DNA of 64,000 bases, from NCBI GenBank assembly GCA_016699595.1, contig CP064982.1, positions 507,962-571,961 on the forward strand, read 5' to 3'. This DNA is from a bacterium. Lineage in GTDB: Bacteria > Patescibacteriota > Dojkabacteria > GCA-016699595. A model generated the notes under the pieces. The model was not told the origin of the DNA. It saw only the letters and a program-made list of their open reading frames with translations, and did not search any database. Below, one piece after another: positions 8,406-54,071 of the stretch. The translations under genes and the position numbers were made by a program. Every line of letters starts with the position of its first letter. The first letter of the stretch is position 1.

Positions 8406-9107
8406 TCAATTGAAGCGTTCAAAATGAATACTTTCCTCAGAATAGCCCTTTTGAAGTAAGTATTCCTGCAAATCATTTACAGCTTGTTTGCTACCACAAA
8501 TGAAGAAATGAGGAGATTTCAAGTTGCTTAATGTAAGTTTATCTAATCCGTCTTGTATATGCCCAATATTATAGCTACCAAATATCTCTTCACCTTTGGA
8601 TAACCATAATTCATAGTGAAAGTGATTATTCTCTTTCATGAGCTTATCAAAACAGTCCTTATAGTAAATGTCCTTTACAAATCTCAGTCCATGATAAAGA
8701 AACAAATGTCTTATTCTTTGTGAATGAAAATTTATTTCTGTCTCAGGGAGCAAACTTTCTATCATGATTTTTATAGGGGCAATACCAACTCCAGTTGCTA
8801 AGAAAATTAGATCCGAATCGATAGGGATCTTTTCAAGTGTAAATTTACCTATAGGACCTAGCATTTTGATGTTATCGCCAATTTGTAAATTTGATAATAA
8901 GCTTGTAAATCTACCTCCTTCAATGATTTCTATCGTCAAACTAAAGGAATCTTCTAGAATACCTGATATTGAATAAGCCCTAGCAACCTTGTCTAATACT
9001 AAGTTGACATATTGACCAGGCTGTGGATTAAAATTTTGTGGCCTTGCAAAAAAAAATTCGACAACACTTGTTGTCAAATTTATCTTTTTTAATAGCCTTG
9101 TGAACAT
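8406..9107 (-). CDS. Ferredoxin-NADP reductase-like FAD/NAD(P)-binding oxidoreductase
   Basis: RAYSIS (RxYS FAD-binding) and LATGVGIAPIKIM nucleotide-binding motifs; start trimmed to MFTRLL at 9107 to avoid overlap with the upstream gene. Confidence 0.6.
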   Translation of the reverse strand: MFTRLLKKINLTTSVVEFFFARPQNFNPQPGQYVNLVLDKVARAYSISGILEDSFSLTIEIIEGGRFTSLLSNLQIGDNIKMLGPIGKFTLEKIPIDSDLIFLATGVGIAPIKIMIESLLPETEINFHSQRIRHLFLYHGLRFVKDIYYKDCFDKLMKENNHFHYELWLSKGEEIFGSYNIGHIQDGLDKLTLSNLKSPHFFICGSKQAVNDLQEYLLQKGYSEESIHFERFN

Positions 9108-23818: not shown

Positions 23819-24685
23819 ATGCTGAATATTATATCAGTTCTAAAACCCTATAACCCAGAAACTAAATCCGGTCTAATCGTTTTTGATAAACCTACGGGAA
23901 TTACTACGAATGACTTGGTTTATCAAGTTCGAAAAGAATACGGAACTCGCAAAGTTGGTGCAGCTGGAGTTCTAGATCCATTCGCAACTGGTGCTGTGAT
24001 AATAGGTATAGGAAATTGTACAAAAGACCTGACTCAATTTGAAAATTGTGAAAAGACTTACGAATTTGAGATGATTTTCGGACTTCAAACCTTGTCTGGA
24101 GACAATCAAGATATGATCGTAGATATCGTTCCTTTTAGGAAGGTGCCAAATGTCAATGAGGCGAAAGGTTTAAGTATAGATACTCTTGCAACTAATCGTC
24201 AAAATATTATTTCTACTTTTCCTAACTCCTACTTTCAAGAAGTTCCACTTTTGAGTTCAGTTAAGGTTCAAGGTCATAAACTTCGAGAATTAACTAGGAA
24301 GAATGTAAATAATATTGAATTCCTAAGCGAATATAAGTTCAATATAAAAACAGAAAGAGAAGTAAACTTCAAAAAAAGTGAAATAATACTCAAAATTCCA
24401 AGAAGAAAAGTTGAGATAAAGAGTTTAGAATTACTTGAGACCGGAACAAAGAGTTATAATCAAATTATACAAAATGCAAGTCAAGAATTTATAAATTCTT
24501 TTAATTGCTTCCTTGGGGAAGCTGTCCCGCAAAGCGGGGCTGAAGGGGTTCATTTCTCTTATTTCAAGTTCAAAACAACAGTTTCCAAAGGAACATATAT
24601 CCGAAAACTTGCAGAAGATATAGCTTTCTTGAATAATGAATTGGGGTGTGTGATGCTTTTAAGCAGGACGTCTTATATAGCTTAA
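23819..24685 (+). CDS. truB: tRNA pseudouridine(55) synthase TruB
   Basis: KPTGITTNDLV, GAAGVLDPFATG catalytic Asp motif, SKGTYIRKLAEDI. Confidence 0.85.
   Translation: MLNIISVLKPYNPETKSGLIVFDKPTGITTNDLVYQVRKEYGTRKVGAAGVLDPFATGAVIIGIGNCTKDLTQFENCEKTYEFEMIFGLQTLSGDNQDMIVDIVPFRKVPNVNEAKGLSIDTLATNRQNIISTFPNSYFQEVPLLSSVKVQGHKLRELTRKNVNNIEFLSEYKFNIKTEREVNFKKSEIILKIPRRKVEIKSLELLETGTKSYNQIIQNASQEFINSFNCFLGEAVPQSGAEGVHFSYFKFKTTVSKGTYIRKLAEDIAFLNNELGCVMLLSRTSYIA
24506..24558. repeat. GC-rich double-hairpin palindromic element, copy A, in-frame within truB
   Basis: GCTTCCTTGGGGAAGCTGTCCCGCAAAGCGGGGCTGAAGGGGTTCATTTCTC; close match to 53853-53905; encodes FLGEAVPQSGAEGVHFS. Confidence 0.65.
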
Positions 24686-45877: not shown

Positions 45878-47077
45878 TTATTTAAGAACTTTGGTAACAA
45901 CTCCAGCACCAACTGTTCTACCACCTTCTCGAATTGCAAATTTCATTTTTTCTTCGACGACTACTGGAACTATCAACTTGATAGTCAAAGTTACATCATC
46001 ACCTGGCATAACCATCTCTGTACCTTGTGGCAAAAAAACTTCGCCTGTTATATCAGCAGTTCCTATATACAGTTGAGGCTTGTACCCTGCAAAGAATGAT
46101 GTGTGTCTACCACCTTCTTCTTTAGTCAATATATAAACTTGAGCTTCAAATTCCGTATGAACTTTCAAGGAACCTGGTTTACACAAAGTTTGACCTCTTT
46201 GAATCCTATCTTTATCAACACCTCTAAGCAAAAGTCCAACATTATCACCTGCTTGAGCCTCTTCCATTTGTTTATTAAACATTTCAACTCCAGTAACAAC
46301 TGATTTTTGGGAAGCTTCTCCCATACCCAAAATTTCCACTTCTTCTCCAACCTTTATTTTACCTTTATCTATTCTACCAGTTGCTACTGTACCCCTACCT
46401 GAGATAGAAAATACATCCTCAACTGACATTTTGAAAGGTAAGTCAATTTCTCGAACTGGTTCGTCTATCCATTCATCTAGCTTAATCAAGAGTTCCTCAA
46501 TTCCCTTTCTTGATTCTGCATCTTGGGGATTAGTCATAGCATTATAAGAATTTCCATAGACAACTGGAGTACCTTTCCCATCAAATTCATACTTCTCCAA
46601 AAGATCTCTGACCTCTTCTTCAATAAGAGCCAACATGTCTGGATCATCAGAACCTGGATATACATTGACATAAACAACAATCTTAGGAACACCAACCTGC
46701 TTAGCAAGTAAAAGATGCTCTCTTGTCTGAGGCATTGGGCCATCAGCAGAACTCACAACCAATATCGCTCCATCCATCTGAGCTGCACCAGTTATCATAT
46801 TCTTTATATAGTCAGCATGACCAGGACAATCAACATGAGCATAATGCCTATTTGCAGACTCGTATTCAACATGAGAAGTTGCAACAGTAACTATTTTTTT
46901 ACCATCGCCTCGAGTGATACCACCTTTAGCAATAGTAGCATAATCCTTTGCTTGAGCAGAGTAACCCAATGCTGCAGATACTTGCAAAAGAGCAGCAGTA
47001 GTTGTAGTTTTGCCATGGTCAACATGACCAATAGTACCAATGTTTAAATGAGGTTTGTTTCGAACAAATTGTGCCAT
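45878..47077 (-). CDS. tuf: Translation elongation factor Tu
   Basis: [15 protein letters not shown]1 motif, DCPGH, NKCD-type motifs; start placed at [10 protein letters not shown] Met (track ORF begins 47092). Confidence 0.97.
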
Positions 47078-47344
47078 AAAAATAAAGTTCATTCCGCTAT
47101 TAACGGAATCAAAGAGCCTATCTTAAATTAATAACTTAGGCAGAATAAATATTTTCAAACAATTCTCAAATTCAGATCATCACCAGAAGAATTATTCAAT
47201 ATCAAAAGCTTATTCAATTGCAAAATCGATTATCACACAATGTTTTAAAATTTGCAAGCAAATTTTTACTAATTTTAAAACTAAATATGCTTTCCAACTT
47301 AAAAAACATTTCCAGTCTTTACAATACAATTGCAATAAATTCTT

Positions 47345-49474
47345 TTACTCTTCTTCGCTCGCATCCTTTTTCAACCTATCTCCCAAAAGCTCAGCAACCA
47401 ATCCGTTTGGTACTATTGAATAGCTATCAAATTCCATAGTACTTGCACCCCTTCCTGATGTCATAGATCGAAGTTCCATCGTCCAACCAAACATATTTGA
47501 TAATGGAACCTTTGCTTTGACACTTTGTATATCACCATCCAAAGCGTCCATACCTTCAATCATTCCCCTTTTTGATGAGAGTGCTCCTGTTACATCACCT
47601 GCATATTGAGTAGGAACAGTAACCACAACTGTCATCATAGGCTCCAAAAGTACAGGTTTCGCTGCTTTTAGAGCTGCCCTCATAGCCATTGAACCTGCTC
47701 TTTCGAATGCTTCTGAACTTGAGTCAACATCATGATATGAACCGTCATACAGTTCAACCTTGACATCACTTGTAGGAAATCCACCAATAACACCATTACC
47801 CAGAGCTTTCTCGCAGCCATCTTGAATTGGTTTGATATACTCCCTAGGTATTGAACCTCCCTTTATAGCATCAACAAACTCAAACCCTTTCCCAACATTA
47901 GGTTCAATTCGAATCCTACAATGCCCATACTGTCCACGACCTCCAGATTGTTTGATATATTTTCCTTCCTGATCTGCAGTTCCAGTAATCGTTTCCTTGT
48001 AAGCAACTTGAGGTTTTCCTACATTTACATTTATACCGTAATCTCTTTGCATTATATCAACTTTGATCTCCAAATGAAGCTCACCCATTCCTGAAATAAT
48101 CGTTTGACCCGTTTCTTGATTTACAGTTACTTTGAATGTAGGATCTTCTTTCGTCAACTTGTTCAATGCCTCACCCATTTTTTCTTGATCAGACTTTGTC
48201 TTTGGCTCAATTGCTAGACTTACAACTGGATTTGCAAAACGAATTGTCTCAAGTATTATCGGACTACTTGGATCTGACAAAGTTTCTCCTGTGCCGGTAT
48301 CTTTCAAACCAATAATAGCTGCTATATCACCAGCTCTCACTTCTTGTACATCCTCTCTAGAATTTGCATGCAACATAACAATCCTACCAATCCTTTCATC
48401 AGCCCTTTTAATTGGATTTAAGACTGTTGTACCTGCCTTCAAAGAACCTGAATACACCCTAAAAAACGACAATGTTCCAACATGAGGGTCAACGGCTATT
48501 TTGAAGACTAATGCAGCAAAGGGATCTTTTGTATCTGGCTTTCTTTCCAAACTTACAGATTCATCTACTGGATCATGACCTTGAACTGCCCCTCTGTCAT
48601 TTGGAGATGGTAAATATCTACAAATCACATCAAGCAGTGGCTGAATCCCTTTGTTTTTTAATGATGCTCCAACTAGTACAGGAAAAATTTTGTTCTCAAT
48701 TGTAGCCTTTCTCATGACAGGATAAATTTCTTCAGGAGTGATTTCCTCGCCAGCAAAAAACTTTTCAATCAATCCATCATCAAATTCAGCAATCTTTTCA
48801 ATCATTTTTGTCCTCCATTCATTTGCAGTTTCAATCATATCTGCAGGAATTTCAGTAATCGTCATTTCCTTGACATCATCTTTGCCATATTCATAAACTT
48901 TCATAGTCACCAAGTCAATTATTCTGTACAAATCTGACTCTGCACCAATAGGAATTTGGATAGCTATAGCATCTTTTGACAGTCTAGCTTTTATAGAATC
49001 TAGTGACTTATAAAAACTTGAACCAATAGAGTCAAGTTTGTTTACATAGCAAACTCTAGGTACTTTGTATTCGTTTGCTTGTCGCCAAACAGTTTCCGAC
49101 TGAGGCTCAACCCCCATCTTGCCATCAAAACAAACTACAGCTCCATCCAAAACTCTCAACGACCTTTGAACTTCAGCAGTAAAGTCTACATGACCGGGTG
49201 TATCTATAATATTTATCCTATGAGCTTTTCCATCGGTATTCCAAAAGCAAGTAGTTGCAGCTGACTGAATAGTGATACCTCTTTCTCTTTCCTGTTGCAT
49301 GAAATCCATCTCAGCAGCACCCTCATGTACTTCGCCTAATTTATGTTTCCTCCCTGTGAAGTATAGTATTCTTTCTGTAGTTGTAGTTTTACCAGCATCA
49401 ATATGAGCTATGATACCGATATTTCTATATAAGTTTAAGTCTTTGACTTGTGTATAATCTATTGCGTTCGCCAT
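47345..49474 (-). CDS. fusA: Translation elongation factor G
   Basis: [28 protein letters not shown] and the five-domain EF-G architecture. Confidence 0.97.
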
Positions 49475-52463: not shown

Positions 52464-54071
52464 CTATTCTTCATTCCTCTTTTCCCACTCCATCCCAAAC
52501 TTACAAATTTTGTCCTCTTCAAATCTACTTCCTATTATCTGCATACCGATCGGAAGTTTCATGCAAACTTCACCCAAGTAATTTTTCCCAAATCCAGCTG
52601 GGTCAACAGTTGTTTTATAACCAACATTTATAGATAACCCTGGAATTCCTGCTGCATTGACTGGAATTGTGAATATATCAGCAAGATAATTGAAAACCGG
52701 ATCATCACTTTTTGTCCCAATTCCCCAAGCAACAACTGGTGAAGTAGGTGCCATTATGACATCAACTTTCTCAAATGCTTTATCAAAATCTTGTTTAATA
52801 AGCGTTCTTACTTGCATAGCTTTACTGTAATACCTGTCAGCATAACCTTTCGCCGAAGTATAAGTTCCAATCATGATTCTTCTTTTCACTTCGGGTTCAA
52901 GCAAAGCTCTATTCTCAAGATAAAATGATTCTAAATCTTGTGCATTATTCAAGGCCTCTTTTGCATCAATTGGATTGTTTTGGTCAATTTCTTTCGAAAG
53001 CCCTCCATATCTGATTCCATCAAACCTTCCCATATTACTTGCAATTTCAGTAGGAACTACGACATAGTAAACGGGGACAGCATACTTGGTATACGGCATC
53101 TGGATATCTACTAGCTCACAACCCATAATCTCAAACTCCTTGATCGCATCTAGAACAACCTTTTTGATATCTTCATCTACTCCATCTGCAAAATATTCTT
53201 GGGGAATTCCAATCTTCATACCAGCAATTGAGCTTGATTTCAATTTATCTAATTCTGATTTTACTTTTTCTACAAATTCAGATGAACTAGTATCTATGCC
53301 TTGCCCTAAAAATGGTTCATGTGAACTTGTCCCGTCTTTTGGATCATGACCTTCTATGTACTTCTGCACTATCCAAGCATCTTCAGTATTTTTTGCGAGA
53401 ACTCCAGGAGTGTCCCAACTACTTCCCATAGCAATCAAACCATACCTAGAATTTCTACCATAGCTTACTTTAAGTCCAGAAAGTCCAGTAAGTGCTGCAG
53501 GTTGCCGTATCGAACCACCTGTGTCAGTTCCTATTGAATATTCTCCGACTTCAAGTTTTACTGCAGCAGCAGATCCTGATGAGCTTCCACCAGTTATTCT
53601 GTTTATACAAACTGGATTTCTTGTTGGTCCAAACCCTGAATTTTCTCCACTTGCACCAAATGCAAACGGATCAGAATTGTTTTTTCCAATCATTATAGCT
53701 CCTGCTTTGTCAAGTCTGGCATGCGTAGTAGAGTCATATTGAGGGATGTAAGTATTGAGCATTTTTGAACTTGCAGTAGTTCGAATTCCCTTTGTAACTA
53801 TAACATCTTTGATTGTCATCGGAATTCCAGCAAGTAATGATTCTGTACTAACTGCTTCCTTGGGGAAGCTCCCCGCATTTTGCGGGGTGAATGGGTTTTT
53901 CATTTTCTCATCTACTTGCAAAGCCTTTTCTAATGCTTCTTTATCTGTCAAAGTATTTAGGAAATTTATTTCAGAGTTATACTTTTTGACTTTGTCAATT
54001 GCTACTTGAGTAAGTTCAGTTGAACTAATTTCTTTATTTTGTAGTTTTTTGTGAATATCCAAAATCGACAT
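52464..54071 (-). CDS. gatA: Glu-tRNA(Gln)/Asp-tRNA(Asn) amidotransferase subunit A
   Basis: Amidase signature GGSSSGSAAAV, GIPMTIKD, GTDTGGSIRQPAA. Confidence 0.9.
   Translation of the reverse strand: MSILDIHKKLQNKEISSTELTQVAIDKVKKYNSEINFLNTLTDKEALEKALQVDEKMKNPFTPQNAGSFPKEAVSTESLLAGIPMTIKDVIVTKGIRTTASSKMLNTYIPQYDSTTHARLDKAGAIMIGKNNSDPFAFGASGENSGFGPTRNPVCINRITGGSSSGSAAAVKLEVGEYSIGTDTGGSIRQPAALTGLSGLKVSYGRNSRYGLIAMGSSWDTPGVLAKNTEDAWIVQKYIEGHDPKDGTSSHEPFLGQGIDTSSSEFVEKVKSELDKLKSSSIAGMKIGIPQEYFADGVDEDIKKVVLDAIKEFEIMGCELVDIQMPYTKYAVPVYYVVVPTEIASNMGRFDGIRYGGLSKEIDQNNPIDAKEALNNAQDLESFYLENRALLEPEVKRRIMIGTYTSAKGYADRYYSKAMQVRTLIKQDFDKAFEKVDVIMAPTSPVVAWGIGTKSDDPVFNYLADIFTIPVNAAGIPGLSINVGYKTTVDPAGFGKNYLGEVCMKLPIGMQIIGSRFEEDKICKFGMEWEKRNEE
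53853..53905. repeat. GC-rich double-hairpin palindromic element, copy B, in-frame within gatA (coded on the opposite strand to copy A)
   Basis: GCTTCCTTGGGGAAGCTCCCCGCATTTTGCGGGGTGAATGGGTTTTTCATTTTCTC; encodes KNPFTPQNAGSFPKEAV. Confidence 0.65.

Follow-up and report, generated by a model that had tools for sequence, protein, structure and literature searches.

The essential gene gatA, in a 64-kb stretch of the AT-rich chromosome of an ultrasmall member of the Patescibacteria (contig CP064982.1; this whole stretch of DNA is called the window), raises an unusual question. Its protein carries a short run of residues that its homologues lack, and the DNA encoding them is a GC-rich double hairpin which is found a second time in truB, where it is read from the other strand. 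What kind of element can be translated in two unrelated genes in opposite orientations? The answer that we consider probable is that the feature in gatA is a solo unit of a dispersed, non-autonomous family of GC-rich hairpin repeats of Patescibacteria (CPR, for Candidate Phyla Radiation), translated as a surface loop. We infer that the unit is also likely to spread as selfish DNA.

The repeat unit in gatA and truB

The two units in the window have one composition: first hairpin 1 in a block of 18 nt, next hairpin 2 of 17 nt, and last a tail of 10 nt, TGAA[G/T]GGGTT; the plus-strand letters of the gatA copy are TGCTTCCTTGGGGAAGCT, followed by CCCCGCATTTTGCGGGG and then TGAATGGGTT. The coordinates of the features are collected in Table 1. 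Hairpin 1 is the same in both units, and hairpin 2 has in both a 7-bp stem and a 3-nt loop, of sequences that differ between them. Both units fold into two adjacent stable hairpins, with a minimum free energy of -23 to -25 kcal/mol and z-scores from -2.6 to -4.4, and both are strongly GC-rich in a window of 33% GC overall. The window contains exactly two occurrences of the 18-mer TGCTTCCTTGGGGAAGCT, at 24506 and at 53853 and each on the plus strand, for a shuffle expectation of 0.03, and the pattern CCCGC-loop-GCGGG is found only in the same two units (0 expected). Covariance model R1, built from 22 family members, gives the truB copy 62.4 bits and the gatA copy 60.7 bits (E about 1e-17 to 1e-18). 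No further copy was detected in the whole 64 kb by pattern searches, by a scan for GC-rich islands or by the covariance model (E<=5). The shared plus orientation of the two units, with n=2, has no statistical weight.

The window GatA is identical to GenBank QQR93357.1, and the direction of the unit from hairpin 1 to tail lies on the strand opposite to the coding strand of the gene. The preliminary description had placed this second copy of the double hairpin at 53853-53905. The copy and the orientation that it shares with the truB copy are real, but the unit ends at 53897 and positions 53898-53905 are flank. The same description had proposed about 15 extra residues, in frame on the opposite coding strand and N-terminal to the GIPxxIKD motif, and here it was correct: the insert of 15 residues (NPFTPQNAGSFPKEA) stands in exact codon register, with GIPMTIKD downstream at residues 82-89. 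In an alignment of 21 GatA homologues, ranging from the nearest relative at 59% identity through to Tepidibacter GatA, all 21 have a gap of at least 14 columns at the insert. None of them carries the peptide, whose conservation in unrelated GatA proteins had been named beforehand as the observation that would speak against an inserted element.

The insert is located immediately ahead of the GIP..KD strand which bears the catalytic lysine. In the AlphaFold model of GatA the mean predicted local distance difference test score (pLDDT) is 86.6, and the insert is coil with a pLDDT of about 53-73. A GatA encoded in an independent Logan assembly is 98% identical and keeps the insert, and five of its nine substitutions fall within residues 53-67. 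Among these, G67V would mismatch the stem of hairpin 2, and P60T would add to the damage of the tail, already seen in the window as TGAATGGG in place of TGAAGGGG. Judged by these substitutions, the gatA copy looks like a passively drifting, decaying remnant and not an active element.

Further lineage-specific segments of GatA, lacking in most homologues, are found at residues ~352-378 (window 52938-53018) and ~262-285; they comprise EIDQNNPIDAKEALNNAQ... and a longer linker around SSSEFVEKVKSELDKLKSS. These segments are AT-rich, have no hairpin motif and have a pLDDT below 50-65. Ordinary expansion of loops could account for them, or they could be inserts of old date that have decayed completely.

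The unit in truB is likewise in the codon register of its host gene, and the loop that holds it varies among TruB homologues. Within residues 161-250, from the catalytic domain to the VSKGTYIR motif, this protein is ~60 residues longer than Thermotoga TruB, and the hairpin unit accounts for only 15 of these. In both 45-nt units five of the six reading frames are open; the sole stop is the tail's TGA, which is read in one of the sense frames. A copy located in a gene therefore has a high chance of being free of stop codons.

Table 1. Positions of the two repeat units, their parts and their host genes in the window
Feature	Position	Strand	Description
gatA, host gene, 535 aa, amidase family	52464..54071	-	insert in coil between helix 43-58 and strand 84-88
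gatA copy, 45-nt hairpin-repeat unit, solo half-element	53853..53897	+	antisense, gatA codons 59-73, NPFTPQNAGSFPKEA
Hairpin 1 of gatA copy	53854..53869	+	GCTTCC-TTGG-GGAAGC; 6-bp stem, 4-nt loop
Hairpin 2 of gatA copy	53871..53887	+	CCCCGCA-TTT-TGCGGGG; 7-bp stem; variable module of the family
Tail of gatA copy	53888..53897	+	TGAATGGGTT; one substitution relative to family consensus TGAAGGGGTT
Tryptic peptide covering the GatA insert			NPFTPQNAGSFPK; predicted from sequence
truB, host gene, 288 aa	23819..24685	+	unit in variable loop just ahead of conserved VSKGTYIR motif
truB copy, second 45-nt unit	24506..24550	+	sense, truB codons 230-244, CFLGEAVPQSGAEGV
Hairpin 2 and tail of truB copy			hairpin 2, GTCCCGC-AAA-GCGGGGC; tail, TGAAGGGGTT

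The family in other Patescibacteria

Species-representative genomes, a collection from which the source genome is absent, were searched with the 18-mer alone as query, the tail not being required. The scan gave 19 loci. Thirteen have a three-part layout consisting of the 18-mer, a GC-rich hairpin varying in sequence and length, and then (C)TGAAGGGGT(T); the other six are chance matches with no recognisable downstream structure. The tail is thus conserved though it was absent from the query, and in these loci it almost never occurs without the hairpins. The thirteen loci come from three sets of assemblies, namely one Woesebacteria metagenome-assembled genome (MAG), three MAGs of SRP342105 and one GL51 MAG labelled 'bacterium' (30-37% GC). 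A metagenome scan added 10 more family members, and the three-part unit recurs in independent assemblies from NCBI, JGI and ENA. Among viral contigs there were only chance matches to hairpin 1 and none with the full unit; a phage vector was rejected on this ground.

The three SRP342105 MAGs are labelled 'Gammaproteobacteria', yet their genes look like CPR housekeeping genes. For the records concerned (L001, L010, L015, L016 and L019, 'uncultured Gammaproteobacteria'), gene content and nearest homologues are Patescibacteria-like; the TsaD homologues, for example, are named Candidatus or Patescibacteria. These labels may be wrong, to judge from the encoded proteins.

Hairpin 1, GCTTCC-TTGG-GGAAGC, is invariant in 19 of the 22 aligned members, the others having the loop TAGG (for example L017b and L042, alignment A3), although its identity across the family partly reflects the search set-up. 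At the foot of hairpin 2, all four base pairs covary in the 22-unit alignment, with 18 double-change cells compared with 5.0 in shuffles, and none of 500 shuffles reaches 18. When the partner is moved by one to three columns as a control, the paired cells fall from 96% to about 36-62%. Two orthologous loci with flanks ~90% identical, L015 and L041, have nearly unchanged fixed modules, and their hairpin 2 reads CCCGCCGTTTGAGGCGGG versus CCGCGTCAGACGCGG, with compensated changes and an indel of 3 nt, which is one whole codon. As read from the aligned copies, hairpin 2 is hypervariable in sequence and length, yet in every case it is predicted to pair. Several of its variants carry GCGAAGC or C-GNA-G mini-hairpins, which are unusually stable in DNA. 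The plus strand folds better in 20 of the 22 copies with RNA parameters and in 10 of the 22 with DNA parameters.

At least seven housekeeping genes, unrelated to one another, hold the unit in frame, in sense or in antisense orientation. In sense and in frame they are located in MutM/Fpg, TsaD and IleRS, the last in two genomes and in a common loop; in antisense and in frame they are located in a transaldolase-like protein and a FemAB-like protein, and an antisense copy in the C-terminus of a RecJ-like protein leaves the long open reading frame (ORF) unbroken. About half of the host genes are read in the sense of the unit and half against it, and copies in long ORFs use both TGA-free sense frames and all three antisense frames. 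This pattern, together with the intergenic copies, agrees with the earlier suggestion of a coding-tolerant palindromic element whose in-frame insertion can go either way round. Of the copies outside the window about half are within ORFs, as are both window copies. Of the intergenic copies, one lies between two tRNA genes, some are beside promoters and some are in AT-rich spacers. The L011 and L012 copies are at gene ends, just upstream of TGCTATAAT promoters.

Gain and loss between orthologues are seen in two proteins. The IleRS of L063 has no insert, and it is 86% identical to that of L017, which has one; L017 and the more distant L022 carry the unit in the same loop with hairpin 2 sequences that differ. 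In TsaD, a 94%-identical homologue keeps the insert, while homologues at 72-78% identity have a different palindromic insert still ending ...EGV. Over homologues of 63-94% identity this loop is filled, differently filled or short. By these comparisons the IleRS and TsaD loops are hot spots with turnover.

Two of the homologues at 72-78% identity, encoded by tsaD of related CPR genomes at L047 10001-11146 and L048 575-1762 and each about 75% identical to the L016 query, contain the same ~55-nt palindrome (…TTTTGC…GTGACGTACCCCTCGGGAGAACCCCGTCA…GCAAAA…) in the same loop in opposite orientations. This points to one of two events: the segment between the arms was inverted in place, or a hot spot received insertions more than once. 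The L017 IleRS, on the minus strand, has extra hairpin modules, including CGACGAAGTCG, directly after the first unit, and a second insert of ~55 residues (ARHPACPDPLGELDSGFGSMKESETNSQNQKAVSSNEIPDRVQNDKVS) at residues ~355-420 of the open frame, which is absent from L063 and L022. Many CPR IleRS homologues (P0395, P0399 and others) are called as proteins of 200-520 aa, even on long contigs, and several of these short calls stop near ...SRSRYWGSPVPVWEC. In L063 1958-4669 the IleRS is called as three consecutive pieces of 319, 211 and 301 aa. Frameshifts or assembly errors could explain the short calls, as could a split gene or an element lying in between.

Outside the window, most copies have an adjoining inverted partner unit, recognised on the opposite strand by the covariance model with E from 4.5e-8 to about 0.5. 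The 45-nt unit is therefore half of the usual element, and the paired form measures ~100 nt. Two arrangements of the pair occur. The head-to-head form consists of ACCCCTTCC, a variable hairpin, CCTTCCC/CCCCTCCC-loop-GGGAAGG/GGGAGGG, an AT-rich linker, GCTTCCTTGGGGAAGC, T, a variable hairpin and TGAAGGGGT, and its tails can pair over 8 bp in a closing stem, ACCCCTTC/GAAGGGGT. The tail-to-tail form reads ...TGAAGGGGT, about 10 nt, and ACCCCTTCC... Solo units occur in L011, L017 and L022. Since the covariance model detected no inverted partner unit beside either window copy, these are also solo half-elements. Just downstream of a cluster of hairpin repeats in L040 (~8560-8660, intergenic) there are three tandem copies of a ~31-nt unit, GATCCTCGCCTTCGCAAGGATGACATCTACA.

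As to the surroundings in the window, the GC skew of the plus strand is negative over nearly the whole of 1-64000, and the minus strand carries nearly all of the genes, including a ribosomal-protein cluster at about 30-46 kb. An ORF of 404 aa at 45878-47092 and one of 709 aa at 47345-49474, also on this strand, are EF-Tu-like and EF-G-like by size and position alone. Two adjoining tRNA-Met (CAT) genes are located at 18324-18557 on the minus strand.

Insertion, spread and alternative explanations

The findings may be brought together as follows. Copies of the unit would insert at many places, and the stop-free frames of the unit together with selection would filter which genic copies survive. 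The copies persisting in essential genes would be those with a whole number of codons, no stop and a position in a surface loop. One 45-nt unit, read in antisense, would have given 15 extra residues to a disordered loop of GatA, and another, read in sense, 15 residues to a TruB loop that is variable. The inserted peptide would have no function of its own, and the gatA copy would now be drifting. As for the route of spread, the one that we prefer is that a trans-acting enzyme similar to RAYT (REP-associated tyrosine transposase, where REP is a repetitive extragenic palindrome) or to the HUH enzymes of IS200/IS605 could recognise the hairpins folded in single-stranded DNA together with the fixed tail beside them. 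This analogy is offered tentatively and its correctness is somewhat doubtful, but it would fit the layout of hairpins plus motif, the alternating pairs similar to those of bacterial interspersed mosaic elements (BIME), and the lack of target-site duplications.

A broader reading, which is possible although it is not the one we favour, is that of an undescribed mobile-DNA system spanning the Patescibacteria, in which a dedicated enzyme recognises the fixed hairpin plus the tail and seeds surface loops. Recognition by this enzyme would explain the near-invariance of hairpin 1 and tail across distant lineages, and the variable hairpin would turn over by changes templated within the palindrome. 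New surface loops would have been seeded repeatedly in GatA, TruB, TsaD, IleRS and MutM. If this were true, it would be the first case of selfish DNA of the kind known as Rickettsia palindromic elements (RPE) in genes outside the Rickettsiales, and it could be a general origin of many lineage-specific insertions in CPR proteins.

Several observations weigh against the proposal of a spreading selfish repeat. The insert-free orthologues of IleRS and TsaD yielded no exact empty site at the nucleotide level, and because these loops have diverged the insertion boundaries are not base-exact. The nearest TruB homologue, at 40% identity, has at the site of the unit an unrelated AT-rich segment of similar length, so that replacement and insertion are indistinguishable there. 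No direct repeat flanks the six full pairs or the solo units, and no consistent target motif is visible at the ends of the elements. No two copies within one genome are identical in all three modules, and hence nothing shows recent transposition. In ~28 kb from the nearest relative of the window organism (26-28% GC) there is no copy; with two copies per 64 kb and none in these 28 kb, the copy number in the lineage is low. A tblastn search of about 175 kb with an IS608 TnpA query, which is a weak test, gave no match with E<0.4 and revealed no transposase, RAYT or TnpA-like gene. The stems contain 123 Watson-Crick pairs and 2 G-T pairs; being almost all Watson-Crick, they make the counts of G-T versus A-C uninformative, and no strand is marked as the active one. 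Finally, a cellular function could instead be the reason why hairpin 1 and the tail are so strongly conserved in distant lineages.

The best of the other explanations, although an unlikely one, is that the unit is one terminal inverted repeat of an insertion sequence with a DDE transposase. The pairs would then be a classical MITE (a miniature transposable element with inverted repeats), and solo units such as the window copies could be products of partial deletion. It is in agreement with this that, outside the window, most copies form inverted pairs in which the left half approximates the reverse complement of its right-hand partner. However, the pairs have no flanking target-site duplication, no parent insertion sequence was seen, and a hypervariable internal hairpin within terminal repeats would be unusual. 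The occurrence of both head-to-head and tail-to-tail pairs also fits alternating arrays similar to REP/BIME better than fixed transposon ends.

It is still less likely that the unit is a nucleic-acid element kept by the host. Such an element might bind a protein of the nucleoid, of DNA topology or of repair, or it might serve in RNA as a terminating or stabilising hairpin. E. coli REP/BIME repeats have secondary roles of this kind. The conservation of hairpin 1 and tail across distant CPR lineages, the compensated changes by which the pairing of hairpin 2 is kept, and the location of the L011 and L012 copies ahead of promoters would all be accounted for. On the other hand, the nearly equal mixture of sense and antisense copies argues against a role at the mRNA level, the positions are not conserved between lineages, and orthologues without the unit exist. 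In addition, the gatA copy gathers changes that disrupt stem and tail, and no Rfam family matches.

Excision and religation at the RNA level, as for an intron, would leave a mature protein without the insert, and we regard this as very improbable. The structure is strongly conserved, the 8-bp closing stem can join the ends of the paired forms, and introns are unusually abundant in Patescibacteria (PMC13011429). However, every copy in a housekeeping gene preserves the frame and has no stop, as would be expected only of translated copies; solo units such as that in gatA have no closing stem, and none of the ribozyme and intron models gives a match. An explanation by chance, by convergence or by an assembly artefact, for which only the small copy number in the window might speak, is effectively refuted by the shuffles (0.03 copies of the 18-mer predicted), by the covariance-model E of about 1e-17, by the recurrence of the three-part unit in assemblies of independent origin, and by the GatA insert in the Logan assembly.

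To our knowledge, in-frame selfish palindromic DNA in essential genes is a textbook rarity, known essentially from Rickettsia. What is new here is its occurrence in a new phylum and with a different, much smaller modular architecture, and the same lifestyle in Patescibacteria suggests that it recurs in reduced, AT-rich genomes. A full-text literature search found no report of such elements in CPR or Patescibacteria, which does not disprove the existence of one; with no publication found, the family appears to be previously undescribed. It provides a concrete source for unexplained lineage-specific loops in CPR proteins. It is also a warning for annotation and phylogenomics, in that GC-rich inserts of 15-35 residues in the markers GatA, TsaD and IleRS would be repeat-derived and not homologous characters. 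The fixed hairpin and tail offer a handle on any enzyme that moves or binds the unit, and model R1 may be used as a probe.

Comparison with known systems

At the gathering threshold, Rfam 15 gave only tRNAs in the window and the 13 loci, and a permissive scan of 53780-53980 reached 4.4 as its best E-value. The layout was also compared, by inspection, with those of hammerhead, HDV-like, twister and pistol ribozymes, of kink-turns, of integron attC sites and of DNA uptake sequences, which were set aside because the order of elements or the conserved bases do not fit.

It is important to compare the unit with the RPE. According to the summary of Ogata et al. 2000 in PMC10969869, these are palindromic elements of ~100-150 bp which form Rickettsia-specific families, each encoding a conserved peptide. 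As far as that summary goes, the two kinds of element are alike as palindromic repeats of short length, scattered through an AT-rich bacterial genome of reduced size and in frame in unrelated housekeeping genes; both are translated as an extra peptide tolerated at the surface, and no transposase is known for either. The marks of an RPE found here are stable hairpin folding and in-frame read-through in unrelated genes. However, the CPR unit is 45 nt long (~100 nt when paired) and its host belongs to the Patescibacteria, which places it outside the RPE length and Rickettsia families 1-10. It is GC-rich against a background of 33% GC, has the modular order of fixed hairpin, variable hairpin and fixed tail, and is read in several frames and in both orientations. 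This separation from RPE is based on description.

The second group to be considered comprises REP, BIME and REPIN (paired REP) elements. These too are imperfect palindromes, GC-rich and of comparable size, a REP measuring 20-40 nt; a conserved single-stranded motif stands beside the stem, and they likewise form inverted pairs, head-to-head and tail-to-tail, with no target-site duplication, whereas the window copies are solo. REPs are extragenic by definition and have a GTAG or CGTC head (PMC3733652). The CPR unit has no such head, since it starts with TGCTTCC and ends with GAAGGGGTT, and its copies are also found inside genes. REPs number hundreds of copies per genome and are accompanied by a flanking RAYT gene, while the CPR unit is present in few copies in the window and a weak search found no RAYT.

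Similar features are seen in mitochondria. In yeast mitochondria, the stems of GC clusters are under selection, turnover is fast, and modules are merged and shuffled (PMC4478555). These clusters and the hairpin elements of fungal and sponge mitochondria resemble the CPR unit as GC-rich hairpins in an AT-rich genome, with selected stem pairing and quick turnover of loop or stem sequence (PMC4478555, PMC2800124). The mitochondrial elements differ in being mostly intergenic with a putative AG or TAG target duplication (PMC4478555, PMC2800124), whereas the host of the CPR unit is a free bacterial chromosome with frequent genic insertion and no duplication seen.

The MITEs found in genes (ERIC, Correia and BOX; PMC10969869) are alike in that they are small and non-autonomous, have inverted halves and are able to form in-frame fusions with host ORFs. 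The terminal inverted repeats of MITEs are defined; MITEs also have target-site duplications and a parent insertion sequence that can be recognised, and neither of these two was found for the CPR unit. Its paired forms do have inverted halves, but because both arrangements exist the ends are undefined, and the window copies have no partner.

Since the defining features fail in each case (length and families for RPE, head and extragenic location for REP, duplication for MITEs), the unit is a member of none of these systems. The closest system is, in function, the RPE, and in architecture the REP/BIME/REPIN elements together with the GC clusters of yeast mitochondria.

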